Positions 1,855 to 22,266 of a stretch of 32,428 nt of DNA are shown one piece after another. The notes under the pieces were generated by a model. It was not told the origin of the DNA. It worked only from the letters and a program-made list of their open reading frames with translations, and made no database searches. A program made the position numbers and the translations under genes. The DNA is taken from IMG/VR virus record IMGVR_UViG_2690316184_000005, positions 1 to 32,428 of that record; one strand, written 5' to 3'. The stretch's first letter is position 1. The number at the start of each line of letters is the position of its first letter. Origin of the DNA: a virus. Its lineage: Duplodnaviria > Heunggongvirae > Uroviricota > Caudoviricetes.

Positions 1855-3921
1855 TTATCGATAGAAAACAGTTTTCAGTCCTGTGTTAGTCCCAACAGAG
1901 GTAATCCCTCTGTAAAGGCCGACATTACTGTTGGTTGTGCTATCAACCCTAACGATTCCATCAATGTTATTTATAAGTGAATTTGTGGTTTGTACAGCGT
2001 TGACAGCATAAGATTTACTTTGTGCTGATATATTTGATGCAACTAAAGTACCAGTTGTCATTGATACACCAACGCTTGACGAACCACTCTCAAAAACTGA
2101 ATTTTTAACAATAGCTTTTGCAACCCCACCAGAAATGTTTATATCTGCTCCGTTAAATGCCTGACTGATTCTCTTGACGTCTGACACGCTGATCAGAGAT
2201 ATACGTCCACCTGATAATATATCAAAGAAGAATGAAGACCTTGTGGGATTTGAACTTGATACTGAAATATCACTTAAGTAAACATTACCAATATTAAATC
2301 CGTATCTGATTTCTAACAAAATCGCCCCGTCATAACCTTGCCCATATATGCCATTAATATTTACATACGGTGTTGTGTTATTAACTGCCCGAATTGCGAC
2401 TATGTATCTTGATCCTTCAGAGTGAATGTTATTCGCGTTTACCTGCCCGGAAGTTATCTGTAGACCTGCGCTTAGCTCATAGGTTGCTGTCGTCTTAAGA
2501 TAAACATCACTGATAGTATTGAACCCATCAGATGAATCAACACCATTGCCAATCCTTCCTCGCCCACTAACACCACGAACAACACAGGAACTACCATAAA
2601 CACTAACACAACTATACATAGGGTTAGTTGCTGAGGCGTCATCACAAACCGCAAATACATTTGTTACTGTAACATCATTGGCCTGAACTTTGACTGCTCG
2701 CTTAAGTGCATTGTAAGTATAAACGCCATCAACCTTTATTTTCTTCCCGCTGAGCATATTTGATGATGAGTTGTAAATCTGAATAACAACACCATCAGCA
2801 TCTTCCCAAGGGTTTAGCTTGTAAATCCTTACGTTACTTATAACTCCACTTGATACCTCATCATCATTTGATGGTACTGGATCAAGTGCCGTTCCTACAA
2901 GAATCCCTCGACATGGCCCAATTACATCAACCTGAATACCATTTCCAATGGTGGTAATATTATGTATTGATATGTTATCAACGACAAAATTCAATACAGA
3001 ATTTGCATCTATGAAAATACCATAAGTTAGTTGAGAACCATTACTATCAAAAACATCAACATTCTTAACTACTGGATTAACAGCCCCTGTTTTGATATGA
3101 ACAGGCCTTCTAATTGCCATCATATTGCAGTTAACTTTAATATTGTTAAGCATGCATGAGTTTACTGTTATAAATGATCCTTCATCTCCGATAGCAACAA
3201 TTTCACCATTAATCAAATCTTTCGTAATATTAATGGTGCTGGCTTTAACTGTAGTTCCGTTAAGGTCCACATTCAATCCGTGCGCCATAATAGATTCAAT
3301 TGAATATTTCGCATCAGCACTCGTATCGATATACTGAGATGGCCAAACCAGTGTGTTATGAGGTGAAGAGTATTTATAAGATAGGCCATTCCTTGTTAAA
3401 TATAACTGTGATGCTGATACCGAAAACCCATCGGCAAGACCTGTAATTCCCGGAGCATATTCGTAAATCTCACCTGAGGATGTGGTGATTTTAAAACCAA
3501 CATTTGGATCTGAATCCATGGCACCATGTAATGCCCCATTTACTAAATTAACCCCACCAACACCATCTAACTCCTGTCTTAGTTGGTCAGGGTCATACTT
3601 CAGCACATTAGGAAAATAGAACTGCTGCGCACCATACGCATCATATACAGCCATAGAATGGCCTTGCACAGTTACGAACTTGGCAATCTGCCCGTTATAT
3701 ACCGGGTAACCAGCAGCGTTAATGATGATTGGTTGCGAAACAGGAATGTGAGAACCGTCTTCGTTTTCCACATAAACCTGAATCTGGTTTTCAGGATTTA
3801 CCGGATCAGTGTCAATTTTACCGATATAAATTTTGCCATTGGCAACCGCTTTAAAAGAACGCGCCATAGTGAAGAGTTGCGAAGGCATGCTTACCACAAC
3901 ATTTGCGGTGATATCTGACAT
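1855..3921 (-). CDS. Tailspike protein: P22 gp9-type N-terminal head-binding domain fused to a divergent C-terminal receptor-binding/enzymatic domain
   Basis: N-terminus '[58 protein letters not shown]...[14 protein letters not shown]' matches my recollection of the P22 tailspike N-terminal domain; the rest does not resemble the P22 endorhamnosidase. Start at ATG 3921 (GGAG upstream), not track start 3969. Confidence 0.9.
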
Positions 3922-4042
3922 TTCATTGCTCCAGACGAATGATATGATGCAACCATGATGTGATTGCATACAGAAATGGTACTATTGAGTATTTATCCAG
4001 TAGGTTACGATGCCATTCCACCCAACTGGTGAGGCATCAAGG

Positions 4043-4309: not shown

Positions 4310-4379
4310 AAATCTAGTTTCCGGCTAAAATGGCATTTCCTTCATGATATCCTGTGAAAAACTAAGGAGAGTTAGCCAT

Positions 4380-4865
4380 ATGAAAAAATCACTGTTAATT
4401 ATCCCGCTTCTGCTGGTTGGATGCGCAAAAGTAAGTGACTATCAAGCAAGTTGCGAACAACGCTATCAAAAGCTTAGCGATATGGCTAATTGCCTTGATA
4501 CCAGTGTGAAGAACGACTCACGCATGGCATCAGCACCAACACCTAAGCTGTATGTCCTTGCTGCAAAGATGCTCGGGCAAGGTGTCGATGAAGGCAAGAT
4601 AAGTGACGCACAGGCAAGACTTGAGCTTCAGAATCTTTATGTTCAATTACAAAGCCAAGAACAAGCCCAACAAATAGCACAAAGCCAAGCATTCCAGCAG
4701 GCTTTATTGAATTATCAGGCTGTAAACACAATGCAAGCGATCGAGCAAAAAGCGCGCCAGCCTGTTATAACTCAACCTTACCCAACACGCGTTGACACAT
4801 ATACAAACTGCAATTCAGGATTTGGAAACACGGTAACATGCAACAGTAGCAGTAACATCAGATAA
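4380..4865 (+). CDS. Predicted lipoprotein with Gln-rich coiled-coil-like region; function unknown (candidate superinfection-exclusion/moron protein)
   Basis: Signal peptide plus lipobox 'MKKSLLIIPLLLVGC'; AAGGAGA RBS 9 nt upstream of ATG 4380; same strand and immediately downstream of mnt. Confidence 0.65.
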   Translation: MKKSLLIIPLLLVGCAKVSDYQASCEQRYQKLSDMANCLDTSVKNDSRMASAPTPKLYVLAAKMLGQGVDEGKISDAQARLELQNLYVQLQSQEQAQQIAQSQAFQQALLNYQAVNTMQAIEQKARQPVITQPYPTRVDTYTNCNSGFGNTVTCNSSSNIR

Positions 4866-4955: not shown

Positions 4956-7235
4956 CTATTCTGACAACGAATCAGACTTCGCACCCTGCGTCAGTGCATT
5001 AATCGCTTTTTGCGCTTGCTGCATGGCTTTCTCAAACGCTGTCGATCCGCGTGGGGTGTTTGCCATTCGGAGCATTGCATTTCTGAATGGCTCGCTCTCA
5101 TAGGCGCGAGTAAGAAGTCCGTAGCTTACTGCTGCGCCAGTTGTCGCCGGGTTCATTGCCGTCCCATATCCGATAATGAACGGGATGGTTTGCTGCCCTG
5201 TTGGTGTTGTTACTGCCGCTTTTGCTGCCTGCTGAGTGGACTGAAGGTAGTTTTTCAATCCTTTCAGATAAGCGGCTTCCTGACCTTTAAATGTGATGCC
5301 AGTCTGGTTTTGCAGGATGTTAAGCTGTCGAAGGAACTGGTCAGGGGAACCACCTGATTTCTCCATCGCCTTTCCAATGATGCCATTGCGCATTTGCGCC
5401 CTGCCAACACGACCAACTGAGTTATACAGCGTCTTAATTTCCGATTTGTTCTTGCTGAATAGCATGTTGTTGACAACTTCCGGCGTCAGGTCGCCTTTCA
5501 TGAGAACATTCTTCAGCCTGGTATTCTTTAGTTTCGCCGCTTCGTCAGCGTAGACGGCATTGGCCTGCTGATATTTACGGAGAGTATCGTTGCCAAGATT
5601 CTGACCAATGGCACCATTGATATCGTCTGTCATCGCCTTGTAAACGCGCTGAATGGCGGCATCGGAACGGTTTGGTAACACTGGTCGCTCACCCTTCACG
5701 TCCATTCTGAACTGGCTGCGCAGATCGCTTAATTGCTTCAAATCCAGATTTACCGGACCATCAGGACCAGCATTGCGAACAAGCTCATCACGATAGGACT
5801 GAAGTTTTGAAATAGTCTCGTTATCGGCGACCTTACCAAGCTTCTGCAGGTTAGATATTTCTGTATCAATCTGCTGAATTGCTCGAGCAGGCTGGATATT
5901 GACTCCCGCCATTGCATTCTGAACCTGCTCAAGACGGTTCCCTGCAGCACGACGAATTCCTGATGTTTTCGCTTTAAGGCTGTCAATAACAACAGCTGGA
6001 TCATACTCACCGAATTTATCAGCAAATCTCTGCACCAACTGGCTTCTCGCTTCCTGTTGCGTTGCTCTCATCCCGCTTGTGCCAGCCAGGGGGATATTTT
6101 CCGCTGTCGTCTGCGCCATTTTCCCGACGCGGGAAGTAGGCTGTAACAGGTCTGTGGTGTGCAGAGGAACTCCTTCACGCTCTGCAAATCTGATAGCCTG
6201 CTGCGCTTCTGGCGCAATAGCACCACGAACGCCACGATAAGCAGCACCTAATCCACGTCCGGCAGCGTTAATAGCACCGCCAGCCAGCACACCAACGCCT
6301 AAATCGGTGGCGAGGGCTTCCGCATCATCTTTCGCACTATTTGCAGCAAGTGATCCAACTGCGTTTTCTGCGAGAAGTCGTGTTGCACCCTGAGCAATTC
6401 GACCAGCAAGTGTTGGTGCCTGTACCGCCGCTCTCTCAACGCCAGCAGGAGTGAGGTAAGGCAATGCTTCAGCAAACACCCTGCCCTCTGTCGTTTGTGG
6501 AGTCAGCGCGCCTTGCTGAAGGCCAAAGTCCTGCTCTAATCCCTGCGTTGTTACTCGTGGCGCTGGTTGATATGTACCATCGCCAATGCCGAGTTTACCG
6601 CCAGCCCATGCAGCCGCACTTGTTACAGCATCGGCAACTGATGCAGGTATGTTTGCCACGTTCACGCCAGCCTGCACCAGTCCGCGACCAGTTTCAGCCG
6701 CGGCATTGCCAAGGTCGGAAATGAAACCTCCTTGCTGCTGTGGCGCTGCCTGTGTACTTTGCTGTACAGGCTGTTGTGTAGCTTGATTCTTCCTAGGGAG
6801 GTATTCATCAGCTTGCTGGTTGTGCAGACTCTCCGCATATGCAGTGGCATCGTCAGGATTGTCGAACATACCAAGATGCTTTCCCGTCCTCATGAAGTTA
6901 TCAATAGCTTCATCATCAGACATAATGCGACCATCATCACTAACGGTAGGAATCAGCACCTCTCTACCATCTATATTGGTAGACATGCTCCGCACAGTGC
7001 TAATGCTGCCATCAGAGTTTTTAACAACAGGCCGATTGTGAATGTCAATATTACCCTTCTCTAGCAGACCTCTAGGGTAAGCAGAGTAAAACGCTTGTTT
7101 TGCCTGCTCTGCATTTTCTCCGGCTTGCGGGGCCACGACTTCATTGAAGTATTGTTCCTGAGCCTGCGCTTTTTGTTCTGGTGCTAACGCCTGATACTGT
7201 GGAGAAGCGATAACATCTTTCCATGCTTTAGCCAT
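4956..7235 (-). CDS. Ejection (internal virion) protein, gp16 position of P22-like phages
   Basis: Synteny: last gene of the gp14-gp7-gp20-gp16 block; start overlaps upstream stop (TAATG); 759 aa with Ala/Gln-rich low-complexity stretches. Confidence 0.65.
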   Translation of the reverse strand: MAKAWKDVIASPQYQALAPEQKAQAQEQYFNEVVAPQAGENAEQAKQAFYSAYPRGLLEKGNIDIHNRPVVKNSDGSISTVRSMSTNIDGREVLIPTVSDDGRIMSDDEAIDNFMRTGKHLGMFDNPDDATAYAESLHNQQADEYLPRKNQATQQPVQQSTQAAPQQQGGFISDLGNAAAETGRGLVQAGVNVANIPASVADAVTSAAAWAGGKLGIGDGTYQPAPRVTTQGLEQDFGLQQGALTPQTTEGRVFAEALPYLTPAGVERAAVQAPTLAGRIAQGATRLLAENAVGSLAANSAKDDAEALATDLGVGVLAGGAINAAGRGLGAAYRGVRGAIAPEAQQAIRFAEREGVPLHTTDLLQPTSRVGKMAQTTAENIPLAGTSGMRATQQEARSQLVQRFADKFGEYDPAVVIDSLKAKTSGIRRAAGNRLEQVQNAMAGVNIQPARAIQQIDTEISNLQKLGKVADNETISKLQSYRDELVRNAGPDGPVNLDLKQLSDLRSQFRMDVKGERPVLPNRSDAAIQRVYKAMTDDINGAIGQNLGNDTLRKYQQANAVYADEAAKLKNTRLKNVLMKGDLTPEVVNNMLFSKNKSEIKTLYNSVGRVGRAQMRNGIIGKAMEKSGGSPDQFLRQLNILQNQTGITFKGQEAAYLKGLKNYLQSTQQAAKAAVTTPTGQQTIPFIIGYGTAMNPATTGAAVSYGLLTRAYESEPFRNAMLRMANTPRGSTAFEKAMQQAQKAINALTQGAKSDSLSE

Positions 7236-11869: not shown

Positions 11870-12370
11870 TTATTCGCTCCCGTTATCGCAAGGTTCCTTC
11901 CGGTGGAAGTAATTCCAACCGTTCCACTTCGCCAACTGGTTACCGCTACCAACAGGCATACGGTTTGGATAACCGGACTTACATTTAGCGGCTTTTGCCC
12001 TATCCATTGCAGACAGTTTGACGAGTCGCTCTTTACCGTATCTGGCAGTGGTTATAAGTTTTGCAGACGCTTCCAGCGCATAATCTGGAGCAATGCGGCA
12101 GGCAAGGTTGAAAATGACGGCATTGATAGCGTTATTTGATAAACCGTGCTCATCGCCCGGATCCGGAGCGACATCTGCATCAGCAAAAATGTAGCCAACG
12201 TTGATACCAGGTGACACATCACCGCCAAGCCATTCAGCCATCATCATTTCAAGGTCGTTGACGCCGTCTTCCATAGACTGCGGTTCGACATCGGTTAACG
12301 TGGCATTTGATGCAACACCGAGCTTACGTAATGCCGCAAGGACTAAATCACCCTTCGTTGTCAGGTTCAT
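11870..12370 (-). CDS. Portal-binding tail adaptor protein (P22 gp4-like)
   Basis: '[43 protein letters not shown]...[15 protein letters not shown]...[11 protein letters not shown]' matches recalled gp4; start taken at ATG 12370 ([10 protein letters not shown]) rather than track start 12442. Confidence 0.8.
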
Positions 12371-12947
12371 CTGCTGCCGCCTTAGGTTTTCGACTAGGCT
12401 TTTTACGCTGTTTTTCTTCTGGCTCTGGCTCTGGCTCTGCAATAGCCGGACGCAAACTCAGGAGTCGTCTAAGAACATCATTTGCTTCATGACCATCCCA
12501 CTCTTTCCCGAACTCAAGCTCAGTACCTTCAGGAAGGAACTCGATTTCTTCAACAGGTAGGTGATAAGTGATTTCGCCTTCTGGAGTGGTGATACCAGCA
12601 ATGATCCAGCCATCCCACTCTTCACCGTCACTGTGTTTGCGAGACCACCACGAAAGCTCAGCGTAAGCATGCATCAGCGATGAGAAGAGGCGCACTCGGT
12701 GAGCGTAAAGCTCGTTAAAAGTGTGATAACCGTCGGACACTTCGCCCATATCAACTGGGGAAGTTTCACCTCCGCCAACACTCCCAATTTGATCACCAAC
12801 AAGAGGATCATCAGGAACATCGTCAGGGTGCTTATACCAGCCATTTGCTAAGTGCACAGCTACATCATCAGGATCAACGGTTTTCGTTTTCAGCTTGCGT
12901 CCCCATATTTTGGTATCTCCGCCAGCCTGAAAAATCATTACGCTCAT
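12348..12947 (-). CDS. Hypothetical protein inserted between coat and gp4 genes; acidic, with C-terminal EPEPEPEE + Lys-rich tail
   Basis: 199-aa ORF starting ATG 12947 with GGAG RBS ('GGAGATACCAATG'); codon-sized 44-nt gap after coat stop; overlaps gp4 start by 23 nt; no homolog I can recall in the P22 core set. Confidence 0.5.
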
Positions 12948-12990
12948 TGGTATCTCCAATAGAAAAGGGAGCCGAAGCTCCCTCTGGTTA

Positions 12991-14286
12991 TCACGCGGTC
13001 TGGTTAGGCAGACCAACACCAATTGCCTCTGGTCGTACAGCACATGCTGAATACCACACAGCAATACGGCACTTACCAGACAGAGTGTTGATATCGCCCT
13101 GCGTTGCGAAGATGCCGTTAACACCAATACCAGGAATGCTGAAGGAAGACGTTTTCATACCAGCAAACAGTTCATGGGTTACCGGGATCGGCTGAGACAG
13201 CAGACGGATTGAGTCATCAGCCCAAAACACGTTAGCGGTGGTTGTTGCCACGTTAAGAACGTTTACCGGAGTGGTATCAGCAAGAGATGTGTTTACGTTA
13301 GCGTAAGCCTTCTCTTCTTTTGTCAGTGACGCGTCATCCAGCGCAATAGGCTTCGGCGTGATTTCGATGTGAGTACCATCGATCACACGGGTGATTGAGA
13401 AAGTCGCGTCATCAGTCAGCACGTTCTTCGCCATCTGAGACAGGAATTTCACACCAGTGAAACTGATTTTGTCTCCGCGCTTAAACCCGGTGGTGGAGGA
13501 TACGGTCACCGTTGCAACACGGTTGTCGACGTTCTCCTTGTTACCATCGGTATCAAGGGTGTATGCCTGCGGCTTAAACTTCTGCGCTCCAGTCACAGTT
13601 ACACCAGTAGCGGTTGACTTGGTAACTGCCGGAAGTTTCGGTGAGCGAAGAATTTCATCAAAGCCAGCAATCTGACGCTGAATAGTACCGTTGCGATACG
13701 CTTCTTCAGGAACGCGCCCAAAGATGTCACCATCTACCAGGTTGCGGCCTGCTTTGCGGTAATCGTCAGGGTTCAGGAAGTAACTGATGCCCATATCGCG
13801 ATTTAGCTCACGGGAGAACATCAGGCGCTCTGCATCAGACACAAAATCCCAGCCAGACAGGCCAGTAGATGGACCAATTGCGCGGGTATCGTGAACAACA
13901 AGCGAGCCCATTTCAGTTGCCTGTTTGGCAATCGCTGACTCAATGTTATTCGCCAGTTTTTTGGCGGATGCCTGGATGCGGCGACGGTAAGAACGCTCAT
14001 CACGCAAGTCATCTGCACGAAGCTCGAAGAAATCGTTATCCGGATCTCCCATGTTGCATTTCACGGAGAGTTCCAGAATCCCGGTTGCGTTGCCAGTTAA
14101 ATCCCAGCCAGTCTGTGTTGGCGCTTCCTGCTCAACAGGCATCCACACGGTGTTGCTTGAACGCTGCATGGATTCTGCCGGAGGGGTGTATTTTGTCACT
14201 TTGGACGCCATTGGCGTCAGGTTCTGGACGGTTTCGATGATTTCATCCAGAGCATACGTGACCAGTTGACCTTCATTTAATGCCAT
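12991..14286 (-). CDS. Major capsid (coat) protein, P22 gp5-like
   Basis: '[27 protein letters not shown]...[15 protein letters not shown]...[13 protein letters not shown]...[13 protein letters not shown]' near-collinear with recalled P22 coat; 431 aa. Confidence 0.95.
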
Positions 14287-17376: not shown

Positions 17377-18876
17377 TTAAGTTCTCCGTGCGATGGGCCT
17401 GATTGGGGCTGGTATCTTTTTCTCTTTTGGTTTTTTGATGTCGCGCATCATTTTTGCGAAGCGGCGCATCATGTATGCATAGCGAACGGCGGAGAGCACG
17501 TCGTCGTTAAGCTTGACGATTTTCCCGTTTTCATCACGGTGATAGAGGCGAAACTCCTCAAAGAATGGCTCACAGGTGTTAAATACTTTGAAGCGGCCGT
17601 CGAGCATCATGTCTCGCAATTCAGTGATGCCAGGCTCAACAGCATTACCGCCATCAGGCCATGTCGCATGCTCCTGCAACATCATAAAACCAGCGTCCGC
17701 GTACTGCCCTTTAAGCTGCTCACCGCCGCCCTTCTCGTGCTGGTTTCCGTCATGAGGCCATGCTGTTGGCACTTTATGCGCCCATGATTTAACAGCTCCC
17801 CATGCCTGAACGGCTGTTTTTTCTTTCGCCTTCCACACGCGTGAAACGTAGATTGTGTCTGCGTCCTTATCCCACCAAAGCTGAACCTGCGCTTGTGGGT
17901 GATCCCATCCGAAATCCATCCCGCCAATTACGTAGAAGTGATCAGGACACTCGAACGGCTGGCACTTAATCGTCTCTTCCGGTATCTGGAAGATTCGACC
18001 GCTACCCATCGTAGGAATACCGCGAGCTCGAGCCTCTCTCTCATGCTCTGGATAGGATGCGATGATTTGCTCTTTCTGCTCGTCGGTATAGTGCTCAGCG
18101 TCATAGATGGTCATGTTGACCACTTTCTGCGACTTGCTGGGATTCTTCAGAAACTTGGTAACAACGTCAGACATCCCCATCAGCGGGGTAAACGTCAGGA
18201 TTGAGAATTGCCCGTATTTGTTGGTACGGGTAAGCCCTTCGCCATAAATGCTGTATGGTGGTTCTTCGTCAAACCACACTCCGTGGATTGTGTCACCCTG
18301 CCAGCGAGCACGACCTTGCGAGTATGGCTTGAAGTAGCAGATTGAAATGCCATCTTCAACGCCATCAGCCGTGTGATGCTTAACCAGAAGGTGATCAACA
18401 AGGTTCGGAAAGAAAGGAGACTTCTTCCAGCTAATGATGTCCTCTTTCGGTATGGAGCCGTAGCCAGGCTCATCATTCTCTTCGATACGACCGCACAGGA
18501 TGCGTTGAGTCGTTTTGGTTACAGTCTCGTTTGTCTCGCCGCCAATCCAGAAGACAACAGGCTCATAGAAACGCTTACCTTTCCACTCCCCACCATATTT
18601 ACCATCAGCCGGATAGCCTTTTGTGCCCGGATAACGCCCGGTAAGGTGAAACGCGACTTCAGCAGCACCAGTAAATGACTTACCAAGCTGGTTACCAGCC
18701 ATAAAACAGCGCTCTGGATAGTCATGCCCGGCGTCGATGAACTCACGCTGTTTGCTGTATGGCGTAAATTCATATAGCAGGTGTGTGTTCCGGTAGTTCT
18801 CTTCTTCTTCGAGTAGCTCGAGCAACTCGATTTGCTCTTCGTCGCTCAGGTTATCAAGAATCGCGTCCAGTTCCAC
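17377..18876 (-). CDS. Terminase large subunit, P22 gp2-like
   Basis: 499 aa; Walker-A-like '[10 protein letters not shown]'; matches recalled gp2 throughout. Confidence 0.95.
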
Positions 18877-19342
18877 GGTTGAATAGCTCCTTGATACGAG
18901 AGCGTCGCTTATCGCGATCTCCCTTATCAGGTGTCACGTCTTCAACTTGCGACTGCTCTTTGAGGCCCAAATCACGGGCGATGATGTTAGCGTTGAGAAG
19001 GTCAGCTGCTGCGCCAGAGAATTTCTGATCGTAGATGACCTGCTCTGCTCGCGTAACGACTTCAGATAAATCTTCTCTCAGGCGATATGTGCGCCATGTT
19101 TCAAGCGTCACATCAATGAACAGAGTGAGGCCTGTAATAGTCATCGCTCGCATCTTGGCGATAGGCTCTTGTATCACTTCACCCTGATACGAGAATGCCT
19201 TCATCTCCCATAGCGGGTTAGCTTCTACCCACTCGAAGTATTCACAACAAGCAGCCCACAGCGCCTCAGGCGATTCGAATTTAGGGTTTCGCCCATGACT
19301 ACTGCGGGCCTCCCAAAATCGGTTGCCCTTTGGTGCTGCCAT
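18854..19342 (-). CDS. Terminase small subunit, P22 gp3-like
   Basis: 162 aa '[50 protein letters not shown]'; overlaps large-subunit start. Confidence 0.9.
19054..19075 (-). other. Candidate pac site (headful packaging initiation) inside the small-terminase gene
   Basis: Minus-strand sequence GAAGATTTATCTGAAGTCGTTA matches my recollection of the P22 pac site located within gene 3. Confidence 0.5.
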
Positions 19343-20347: not shown

Positions 20348-20827
20348 TTAAATGATTTGCCAGTCTTCAGCCATCAGGTCGCCAATGGATGGAACCCATG
20401 TAGCAAGGCGGTTCTGTGAGTTTTTCAATACAAGCGTGTCATTGAAAGTTGGCTCGCCAACATATTCGCCAAAGCCATAACCCAACGCAGACGCTAATTT
20501 TTCCCCTTTCATGAGATAAACAAACTGGTCTTTCCCATTCCATCCTGCCCGCTGCAAACTTTTGCCCTGTTTTAACGCTTCCATGGCAAGGCCGAAACTT
20601 AGTCCTGATACCGGACGATAAGCCCTTTCGAATACTTCTTTTGGACTCCAGCTAACGTAGCCATCAAAGCGATCGGTGTTAGGTTTTCCGCCATCCAGAT
20701 ATTCAACCAGATAGCCTTCGTCCTCGCCGTTTTCTCCGGCAGGAAGCTGCCAGCCACGAAAATCGTTATATGCCTGTCTCGTCATCGGAAAGGCGTTAAT
20801 CAGTTTTACGCCAATATGCTGGGTCAT
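20348..20827 (-). CDS. Hypothetical protein, possibly DUF2829-like (candidate Thoeris anti-defence Tad2-type sponge); unverified
   Basis: 159-aa ORF with AGGTGA RBS; C-terminal 'AMEALKQGKSLQRAGWNGKDQFVYLM...TWVPSIGDLMAEDWQII' resembles motifs I associate with DUF2829 phage proteins. Confidence 0.55.
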   Translation of the reverse strand: MTQHIGVKLINAFPMTRQAYNDFRGWQLPAGENGEDEGYLVEYLDGGKPNTDRFDGYVSWSPKEVFERAYRPVSGLSFGLAMEALKQGKSLQRAGWNGKDQFVYLMKGEKLASALGYGFGEYVGEPTFNDTLVLKNSQNRLATWVPSIGDLMAEDWQII

Positions 20828-21048: not shown

Positions 21049-21486
21049 TCATCGAAGGCATTGCGTCCTTATGTATTCCTGCAGGTAGTTAACCTGCGCG
21101 GTTATCCTGTCGATTCCACTTCGGAGACGGTAATAATTGAGTTCAGCATCTGCTGTAAGTCTTGGACTTTCTCCATCGCCCATGCTGCTGGCTCCGGTCG
21201 TTGACTTTGCACAGATGGCGGCGACTTGCAGGCGCTTACGACCAGCAGAAACATCAGCACGGAGACTTTCGATAGTCGCGTTAGCATCAGCAAGCTCCTT
21301 TGTGTATCTTGCGTCGAGTTCTGCTACATCACGTTGACGCTTCTGCATATCAGCGATGATGGATGTGGCTTTATCGCGCTGCTCTTTGTAGGTCATGGCG
21401 TTATCACGGTAATGATTAACAGCCCATGACAGGCAGACAATGATGCAGATAACCAGAGCGGAGATAATCGCGGTTACTCTGCTCAT
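21049..21486 (-). CDS. Rz: Spanin, inner-membrane subunit (Rz)
   Basis: N-terminal TM '[20 protein letters not shown]' plus coiled-coil region; overlaps R stop (ATGA); contains embedded Rz1 frame. Confidence 0.9.
21102..21287 (-). CDS. Rz1: Spanin, outer-membrane lipoprotein subunit (Rz1), embedded in Rz in the +1 frame
   Basis: '[20 protein letters not shown]' signal + lipobox Cys, Pro-rich mature peptide; AAGGAG RBS 7 nt upstream of ATG 21287. Confidence 0.75.
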
Positions 21487-21959
21487 ACCTCAATCTCTCT
21501 GACCGTTCCGCCTGCTTCTTTGAATTTTACAATCAGGCTGTCAGCCTTATGCTCGAACTGACCATAACCAGCGCCCGGCAGTGAAGCCCAGATATTGCTG
21601 CAACGGTCGATAGCCTGACGGATGTCACCGCGATCAATCATCGGTAAAGCGCCACGCTCTTTAATCTGCTGCAATGCCACTGCGTCCTGGCTTTTGGGGG
21701 AGAAGTCTTTCAGGCCAAGCTGCTTACGATAGGAATCCCACCAACGGGAAAGAAGCTGGTAGCGCCCGGCTGCTGTTGATTTGAGTTTTGGGTTTAGCGT
21801 GACAAGTTTGCGAGGGTGATCGGAGTAATCAGTAAATAGCTCTCCGCCTACAATGACGTCATAACCATGATTTCTGGTTTTCTGCCGTCCGTTATCAGTT
21901 CCCTCTGACCACGCCAGCATATCGAGGAACGCCTTACGTTGATTATTGATTTCCACCAT
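21483..21959 (-). CDS. R: Endolysin, lambda R-type lytic transglycosylase
   Basis: 158 aa '[51 protein letters not shown]' essentially as I recall lambda R. Confidence 0.95.
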
Positions 21960-22266
21960 CTTCTACTCCGGCTTTTTTAGCAGCGAAGCGTTTGATAAGC
22001 GAACCAATCGAGTCAGTACCGATGTAGCCGATAAACACGCTCGTTATATAAGCGAGATTGCTACTTAGTCCGGCGAAGTCGAGAAGGTCACGAATGAACC
22101 AGGCGATAATGGCGCACATCGTTGCGTCGATTACTGTTTTTGTAAACGCACCGCCATTATATCTGCCGCGAAGGTACGCCATTGCAAACGCAAGGATTGC
22201 CCCGATGCCTTGTTCCTTTGCCGCGAGAATGGCGGCTAACAGGTCATGTTTTTCTGGCATCTTCAT
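21943..22266 (-). CDS. S: Holin/antiholin, lambda S-type (dual start: S107 at 22266, S105 at 22260)
   Basis: '[62 protein letters not shown]' as recalled for lambda S; 17-nt overlap with R as in lambda. Confidence 0.95.

Follow-up and report, generated by a model that had tools for sequence, protein, structure and literature searches.

What is the gene that lies between the coat gene and gene 4 of a P22-like prophage, and what might its product do? The window, by which we mean the whole stretch of 32,428 nucleotides of IMG/VR record IMGVR_UViG_2690316184_000005, is a P22-like prophage of E. coli with an integrase, tailspike, homologues of gp16, gp20, gp7, gp14, gp26, gp10 and gp4, coat, scaffold, portal and terminase, and it also carries lysis genes, Q, replication genes and a repressor. 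Between coat and gp4 sits an open reading frame (ORF) of 199 codons, which the original prediction took for an unrecognised insertion on the premise that P22-type coat directly precedes gp4. That premise does not hold, as P22 orf69, Sf6 gene 6 and ST104 orf54 fill the same slot, and the ORF is no foreign insertion but a known P22-like gene in the allele carried by E. coli prophages. Its product is a modular protein, with a constant chassis (N-terminal domain, (EP)n spacer and basic tail) and an optional cassette of approximately 100 amino acids, the WDGH domain. Fusions of this domain to validated sponge families, discussed below, lead us to propose tentatively that WDGH acts against host defence.

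The junction gene and its counterparts in P22-like phages

The features of the coat-gp4 junction are as follows.

12348..12947, minus strand: junction ORF, 199 codons and stop (ATG at 12947, stop at 12350-12348)
12954..12957, minus strand: Shine-Dalgarno sequence GGAG, 6 nucleotides before the ATG at 12947
12348..12370, minus strand: overlap of the ORF with gp4, 23 nucleotides, holding the acidic end of the ORF (EPDNEG and stop) and the gp4 ATG at 12370
11870..12370, minus strand: gp4 head-tail adaptor gene, 166 amino acids, the downstream neighbour
12991..14286, minus strand: P22-type coat (major capsid) gene, the upstream neighbour
12964..12985, minus strand: hairpin with stem GGGAGC, loop UUCG and stem GCUCCC, extended to 9 base pairs and followed by UUUUCU

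We consider it practically certain that this is a real gene and that it belongs to the junction-gene/WDGH family. A segment of 701 bases around the ORF has an exact match (100%) in the chromosomes of three E. coli strains, and RefSeq already names the identical copies 'WDGH domain-containing protein'. The protein has 1,383 homologues at E <= 1e-3, matches PHROG 3769 over its full length (E 1e-99) and matches the Pfam family WDGH (PF25311) at residues 68-165 (E 6e-40; 135.9 bits, the cutoff being 27), covering model positions 1-97 of 97. The earlier statement that the protein matches nothing was therefore mistaken. When 100 WDGH codons are compared with those of ST104 orf54, there are 22, 13 and 64 nucleotide differences at codon positions 1, 2 and 3, respectively, with 77% amino acid identity, and this pattern is a signature of purifying selection on WDGH. 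We relied on this comparison since the changes among 14 near-identical long alleles (6 synonymous and 11 non-synonymous) were too sparse.

The start is placed at 12947 because both the homologues and the Shine-Dalgarno sequence put it there. A longer reading frame of 259 amino acids from a TTG at 13127 was rejected, as it is an in-frame upstream extension into coat that has no Shine-Dalgarno sequence, and the homologues begin MSVM. The length of the ORF, its GGAG ribosome-binding site and its 23-nucleotide overlap with gp4 had all been predicted correctly, and so had the character of the product, an acidic protein (isoelectric point 4.7; 40 Asp/Glu versus 21 Lys/Arg) with an EPEPEPEE repeat at residues 171-178 and a Lys/Arg-rich tail. 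The arrangement fits translational coupling, in that the overlapping stop probably couples translation of the ORF to that of gp4. A promoter scan detected no sigma-70-like promoter upstream of the ORF.

The hairpin between the coat stop codon and the ORF (-15.4 kcal/mol, z -1.95) is the counterpart of the Sf6 't coat' terminator and of an annotated stem-loop in P22. It starts 5 nucleotides past the coat stop and is GC-rich with a UUCG loop; a simple terminator scan of the region did not list it. The hairpin lies inside an antiterminated late operon, where partial termination and protection of the mRNA 3′ end are candidate roles.

The slot is occupied in all P22-like phages that we examined, under the names P22 orf69, Sf6 gene 6, ST104 orf54, ε34 gene 6 and L/ST64T orf186. 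In P22, coat is followed by the annotated stem-loop, orf69 (69 amino acids) and gene 4, with an overlap of 17 nucleotides; in Sf6 by 't coat', gene 6 (61 amino acids) and the gp4 homologue, with an overlap of 26 nucleotides; and in ST104 by orf54 (186 amino acids, annotated 'similar to P22 orf69') and gene 4, again overlapping by 17 nucleotides. The window's gene shares with this junction group (PHROG 3769 and 1175) the slot itself, homology in the N-terminal domain and over the whole protein, the basic tail and the overlap with gp4. The original prediction had held that homologues at this position with an assigned structural role would speak against an insertion; homologues are indeed found in the slot in P22-like phages, and none has been assigned a structural role.

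The likeness is closest to the long genes of Salmonella phages. ε34 gene 6, ST64T/L orf186, ST104 orf54 and SE1 orf56 occupy the same slot, have the same order of N-terminal domain, WDGH, linker and basic tail, and fall in PHROG 3769. The junction protein is nonetheless a different allele: it is 62% identical to ST104 orf54 over residues 1-165, its best match among isolated phages in INPHARED is at about 62%, and an (EP)n repeat marks the window's copy. P22 orf69 and Bas106_0006 of an Escherichia phage share the slot, a homologous N-terminal domain, the same basic tail and the same gp4 overlap, whereas WDGH is entirely absent from them and their N-terminal domains, only 26-37% identical to the window's, are nearer to other long forms. 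More distant are Sf6 gene 6 and HK620 hkbT, which also lie past 't coat', have a comparable tail, rich in Lys/Arg and acidic at its end, and overlap a gp4 homologue, but lack WDGH and have an N-terminal part that looks unrelated.

Published accounts agree with this picture. Homologues of ε34 gene 6 were described as varying strongly in length, with substantial internal deletions in the P22 and Scho1 copies, and the role of the family was given as unknown (Villafane et al. 2008, PMC2629481). The same authors reported, citing Eppler et al. 1991, that the P22 copy is non-essential, and stated that the morphogenetic cluster has no morons apart from the ant moron (PMC2629481). Phage L orf186 is listed as 'detailed function unknown' (PMC8022706). 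Literature searches for 'P22' with orf69 found no functional study, and those for 'hkbT' returned nothing relevant.

Chassis and cassette

The regions of the junction protein, with their coding positions, are given below; structures are from an AlphaFold2 model of the full-length protein built on 79 homologues, with per-residue confidence as pLDDT (predicted local distance difference test).

12807..12947, minus strand: N-terminal mini-domain, residues 1-47, a beta-hairpin and helix with a GW..HP motif (pLDDT about 78-87)
12747..12806, minus strand: Gly/Asp-rich linker, residues 48-67, disordered (pLDDT < 50)
12453..12746, minus strand: WDGH domain (PF25311), residues 68-165, a compact alpha/beta fold in the model
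12418..12439, minus strand: hexanucleotide tandem repeat GAGCCA (coding strand), 3.7 copies, encoding the (EP)3 spacer
12381..12413, minus strand: basic Pro/Lys/Arg tail of 11 amino acids, AT-hook-like

The N-terminal mini-domain is common to the short forms of the P22 orf69 type, and the 72-residue phrog_1175 matches residues 1-44 (E 3.9e-13). In the model, WDGH has a helix at 77-94, strands at 99-102, 114-121 and 124-131, and helices at 132-137 and 155-163; a separate model of the domain alone reached a pLDDT of 94 and a predicted template modelling score of 0.83. The domain is net acidic (20 Asp/Glu versus 7 Lys/Arg), and its signature motifs SDGYHTF, YxHR, HxDG, TYHLP and WDGH are all present in the junction protein. 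Residues 166-199 are disordered and comprise (EP)3, the basic stretch and an acidic end that is encoded within the gp4 overlap. In most alleles the basic stretch is KKPGRKPK; other homologues have RKGRKPK or KRGRKPK, P0045 has KKRGRPAK, and a canonical RGRP core is present in some. By its sequence, a Gly-Arg-Pro core between basic residues, the tail appears to resemble an AT-hook.

The WDGH part comes and goes among otherwise near-identical prophages. We collected 80 IMG/VR loci with a gp4 at least 98% identical to that of the window, 76 of which could be scored (the other 4 were truncated). The long form with WDGH was found in 14 of the 76, one of them identical to the junction protein, and the short form in 62. 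Among 5,426 complete E. coli genomes, 217 had the flanks and 42 of these 217 carried the long form. The short copies lack only the WDGH part. Accordingly, the idea of a sporadic insertion stands for the WDGH portion, while the gene itself is constant in its slot.

Comparison of long and short alleles defines the edges of the variable segment. The alleles do not differ in their DNA as far as the coat hairpin and its T-run, which form the left edge of the cassette, nor from the (GAGCCA)n repeat onwards, which forms the right edge; between these identical flanks lies a cassette of about 520 nucleotides in the long form and about 150 in the short. Bas106/CurroJimenez, one of the nearest sequenced phage relatives of the window, encodes a slot protein of 76 amino acids in which a homologous N-terminal domain is fused directly to a 28-residue tail. 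In Bas106 this tail is that of the junction protein save for one residue (G in place of S185), and P22 orf69 has the same layout.

The short forms do not group together. The E. coli short N-terminal domain is 54-61% identical to the long forms P0046, P0050 and P0043, and that of P22 orf69 is 50-57% identical to the long forms P0035, P0034, P0039 and P0038, whereas the two short forms are only 35% identical to one another. Because each is nearer to a different set of long forms than to the other, the short forms are polyphyletic, and there has been repeated loss or exchange of WDGH on an older background of long forms, which extends over Escherichia, Salmonella, Pantoea, Cronobacter, Serratia, Xenorhabdus, Hafnia, Erwinia and Klebsiella. 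One recent deletion behind all short forms is ruled out by this polyphyly.

The spacer is variable in its own right. The (EP)n segment is encoded by a slippage-prone hexanucleotide repeat, the copy number of which varies between 1 and about 15 in proteins that are near-identical elsewhere, always in frame. An (EP)n segment followed by a Lys/Pro-rich stretch recalls the (EP)n-(KP)n rod of TonB.

The WDGH family, its fusions and its neighbourhoods

Outside the P22-like phages, WDGH is a large family that occurs mostly in phages and prophages, with at least 3,691 clusters (50% identity) at E <= 1e-3 and 2,254 at E <= 1e-10. About 200 sequenced-phage records contain it, chiefly from phages of Listeria (54), Bacillus (45) and Salmonella (about 35), and also of Streptococcus, Lactococcus, Klebsiella and Staphylococcus. 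Copies from phages of Enterobacteria and of Firmicutes (Listeria/Bacillus) are about 45-50% identical. Across 149 WDGH representatives, the sample used for counts of conservation and fusion, the invariant or near-invariant residues are S71, D72, G73, H75, T76, F77, E79, L80, Y81, H83, R84, W100, S102, H105, D107, G108, Y128, H129, W150, D151, G152, H153 and R161 in the numbering of the junction protein. Such conservation would suit a ligand or catalytic site better than a protein-protein contact peculiar to one lineage.

Searches for relatives outside the family returned none. Neither sequence nor profile searches of the PDB found a WDGH relative; Foldseek, which the original prediction had recommended as a check on an AlphaFold model, gave no PDB match to the full-length model at E <= 1e-3; and a BFVD structure search recovered other WDGH proteins only. 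NCBIfam gave a chance match to SeqA (E 0.22), PADLOC gave none, and no enzyme fold or family was matched in the Pfam, NCBIfam, structure and profile searches. WDGH is thus a large family with a confident predicted structure and no likeness to solved structures.

Further evidence comes from fusions. WDGH usually has a variable N-terminal partner (a median of about 59 amino acids before SDGYHTF) and sometimes a C-terminal one, and C-terminal zinc ribbons are frequent among members of the Firmicutes type. Recognisable partners among the 149 representatives were PF21825 (6), Lar_restr_allev (2), and YodL, an Acb2/Tad1 hairpin, a Tad2-like domain, DUF551 and a zinc ribbon (1 each). The arrangements found, with residue positions in each protein, are as follows.

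P0103: Tad2-like 1-87, WDGH 98-195, PF21825 205-264
P0260: N-terminal part of unknown type, WDGH 94-192, Tad2-like 204-294
P0139: PF21825 8-66, WDGH 83-179
P0077, P0082, P0108, P0132 and P0243: WDGH followed by PF21825, with mostly dissimilar N-terminal regions ahead
P0207: Acb2/Tad1 hairpin 11-66, WDGH 76-172
P0234: Lar 4-52, WDGH 65-161
P0182: YodL 2-103, WDGH 117-213

PF21825 is Sequestin, shown by experiment to act as a sponge for 3'cADPR, the signal of type I Thoeris; its own discovery came through its fusions to two other sponges, Tad2 and Acb4 (Tal et al., bioRxiv 10.1101/2025.07.12.664507). The protein P0103 is informative here, as it is equivalent to the Tad2-Sequestin protein P0251 (flanks 99% and 97% identical) with an exact insertion of a 105-residue WDGH segment at the domain junction. 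This suggests that WDGH moves as an in-frame cassette, the same behaviour as in the P22 junction gene.

The window encodes a protein with one of these partner domains. A gene at 20348-20827 on the minus strand, with the lysis cassette (21049-22266) on one side and the small terminase gene (18854-19342) on the other, specifies a 159-residue protein with a Tad2-like domain (PF11195) at residues 77-159 (77 bits), preceded by an unassigned part of 76 amino acids. Judged by this domain, the product is likely a sponge for immune signals, encoded in the prophage's own late operon. The Tad2-WDGH-Sequestin gene, which lies at 6001-6798 of a Serratia contig with a P22-type portal gene, occupies the same place as the window's Tad2-like gene.

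We also sampled 150 adjoining ORFs around 56 distinct WDGH genes of other viral contigs. The commonest annotated neighbours at these 56 loci were head-module genes (MuF/minor head at 5, together with portal, scaffold and prohead protease); others were Lar-like genes (4), nucleoside 2-deoxyribosyltransferase (3), PAPS reductase (2) and Sequestin (1). In a pneumococcal phage the WDGH gene is flanked by portal and minor head protein, and in Actinoplanes phage phiAsp2 it comes directly ahead of the tail genes; those of a Staphylococcus phage and of Erwinia phage Pavtok are in early accessory regions. Stand-alone WDGH genes thus recur in head or head-tail modules of unrelated siphophages, which parallels the coat-gp4 position in P22-like phages. 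In Bacillus phage vB_BanS_Nate, a tblastn match to WDGH around 58832-59113 overlaps a hypothetical protein and a NADAR family protein. NADAR is a family of enzymes that remove ADP-ribose, and this overlap is a single, anecdotal link to ADP-ribose.

A few other genes of the window and of its relatives deserve mention. Between the integrase (1-1158) and the tailspike (1855-3969) is a plus-strand gene at 1249-1854 for a hexapeptide-repeat acyl/acetyltransferase of 201 amino acids, possibly an O-antigen acetylase for lysogenic conversion. A 173-residue ORF without a Pfam match, at 4344-4865 on the opposite (plus) strand, separates the tailspike from the gp16 homologue and so takes up the 'ant moron' site that holds sieA in P22. 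The closely related Escherichia phages Dewey and Louie have an HNH endonuclease gene on the opposite strand between scaffold and coat (3510-4031 of that locus); in the window scaffold and coat abut with no HNH gene between them.

Possible roles of WDGH

We hypothesize that WDGH has a counter-defence role, a reading that the fusions favour and to which we give a little less than even credence. That its target is a nucleotide immune signal is a narrower claim and, to our minds, a doubtful one. In the form we envisage, the cassette would bind or cleave a second messenger of host immunity that derives from a nucleotide, of the kind used in Thoeris, CBASS or Pycsar. The junction protein would be made late in infection alongside the capsid proteins, so that the antidote would be at hand as soon as structural proteins that set off signalling defences are produced, and the chassis, with its N-terminal domain and AT-hook-like tail, may tether it to DNA or to head components. 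Stated in full, WDGH would be a counter-immunity family of new fold that either soaks up a nucleotide second messenger as a sponge or breaks it down as a His-dependent hydrolase. It would enter the linkers of small phage proteins as an in-frame cassette, and in P22-like phages it would ride on a late chassis with an AT-hook-like tail, made or packaged with the capsid; taken as a whole, this model is more a possibility to pursue than one we would expect to be correct. Late expression beside coat is no obstacle to it, because the window's Tad2-like gene is also in the late operon and because structural proteins trigger defences. Capsid proteins trigger other signalling defence systems. Side tail fibres trigger type II Thoeris (bioRxiv 10.64898/2026.06.04.730250).

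In favour of a counter-defence role are the repeated fusions of WDGH to validated sponge families and the recurrence of Lar-like genes beside it. WDGH is small, mostly phage-borne and fused to sponges, the profile of a sponge candidate after Tal et al. Like Sequestin (PF21825), Tad2 (PF11195) and Acb2/Tad1, to which it is joined in varying order, WDGH is largely confined to phages and prophages and is found in accessory positions. Several observations weigh against this role. WDGH has no homology or fold similarity to the known sponges (Tad1, Tad2, Acb2, Acb4, Sequestin, Lockin), and it is net acidic, whereas those proteins use positively charged pockets. Recognisable fusions make up only about 8% of the representatives, most partner domains being unrecognised, and the commonest annotated neighbours are head-module genes and not defence-related ones. 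Lar_restr_allev is essentially a zinc ribbon, so the link through Lar is weak. The domain is not mentioned in the screen of Tal et al. for sponge-like phage proteins (bioRxiv 10.1101/2025.07.12.664507), and we found no literature on 'WDGH' or 'PF25311'. Finally, the slot gene lacks WDGH in most relatives, and therefore the chassis must have a function of its own too.

Two comparisons with known systems refine the proposal. Acb5, an anti-CBASS enzyme that cleaves cGAMP (Tal et al. 2025), is likewise small and phage-encoded, has conserved Arg, Trp and His and destroys the signal instead of sequestering it, and by analogy it is a possible functional counterpart for the His-rich WDGH. Acb5 occurs mostly in Streptomyces and Mycobacterium phages and WDGH mostly in phages of Listeria, Bacillus, Salmonella, Streptococcus and Lactococcus; that the two are one family was set aside on these differing host distributions alone. 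The junction gene also invites comparison with a lambdoid moron, which is likewise dispensable, variably present and located in a late operon. Here, unlike in a moron, no own promoter was detected, and the gene is constant with the internal domain alone variable. A classical moron with its own promoter and terminator was therefore rejected, as no promoter lies upstream and the hairpin ahead of the ORF belongs to the coat gene. Of the suggestion that this is a late anti-defence moron, the anti-defence part gains indirect support from the sponge fusions, and the moron part, at least in the classical sense, does not survive.

WDGH could instead be a small enzyme or binding protein that acts on nucleotides or nucleic acids for phage metabolism, such as DNA modification, repair or nucleotide salvage, and not in immunity. 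Five near-invariant His together with Asp, Arg and aromatic residues within about 100 amino acids do look like a catalytic or ligand site, the neighbours include nucleoside 2-deoxyribosyltransferase (3), PAPS reductase (2), dUTPase, RusA and RNase H, and the frequent C-terminal zinc ribbons of the Firmicutes-type members would suit such a protein. We nevertheless regard this as unlikely, given that no enzyme fold or family matches, that the verified fusion partners are immune-evasion domains, and that dispensability and sporadic presence among near-identical phages suit an accessory role better than core metabolism. We think somewhat less probable again that the protein is head-associated or delivered with the virion, entering procapsids or virions by its basic tail or N-terminal domain and serving in head completion, DNA retention or as released cargo; such delivery would be compatible with anti-defence activity of the cargo. 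The position between coat and gp4, the recurrence of WDGH genes in morphogenesis modules of unrelated phages (the pneumococcal phage and phiAsp2) and the prevalence of MuF/minor-head, portal and scaffold genes as neighbours at the 56 loci all agree with it. Virion preparations of phage L held 22 phage proteins, 9 of which are not named in the text (PMC8022706), but the authors ascribed the nine extra proteins to contamination. The P22 homologue is non-essential, moreover, and the ε34 virion gel is nearly identical to that of P22 in spite of the long versus short form (PMC2629481). Many WDGH genes are in early or accessory regions, and the protein has no homology to Dec or the ejection proteins; a decoration or ejection protein recognisable by homology (Dec, gp7, gp20, gp16) was rejected for want of any such Pfam, PHROG or NCBIfam match.

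The remaining explanations assign little importance to the protein. If the slot ORF mainly served expression, loading ribosomes past the coat hairpin and handing them to gp4, this would agree with its being non-essential (PMC2629481) and with the retention of hairpin, slot ORF and gp4 overlap in P22, Sf6, ST104 and the window, even where the N-terminal domain differs as in Sf6. It could account for occupancy of the slot but not for WDGH, which occurs in thousands of proteins unrelated to gp4, and the N-terminal domain, the tail and above all WDGH are strongly conserved at the protein level; we hold this to be quite improbable. More improbable still is that WDGH is a selfish, promiscuously inserting cassette without benefit to the phage. 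Its exact in-frame insertions into linkers of unrelated small proteins and its patchy presence among near-identical prophages are what such an element would leave behind, yet it has no nuclease, intein or transposase features, and it is under strong purifying selection, with near-invariant residues of surface type across phyla.

The gene itself is ordinary, in that the junction gene has been described in P22-like phages since 1991-2008 and is already annotated. What is new here is the division into chassis and cassette, with the edges of the cassette placed on the DNA, as well as the polyphyletic nature of the short forms, the hypervariability of the (EP)n spacer and the evidence from fusions, which is of the same kind as led to Sequestin. 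Taken together, these findings make of a functionally blank domain a candidate anti-defence family that can be tested directly. The natural pairs of long and short alleles with identical flanks are ready-made isogenic controls. If the proposal of a counter-defence role is true, it would add a widespread anti-defence family, and part of a long-unexplained gene of the P22 family would gain a function.

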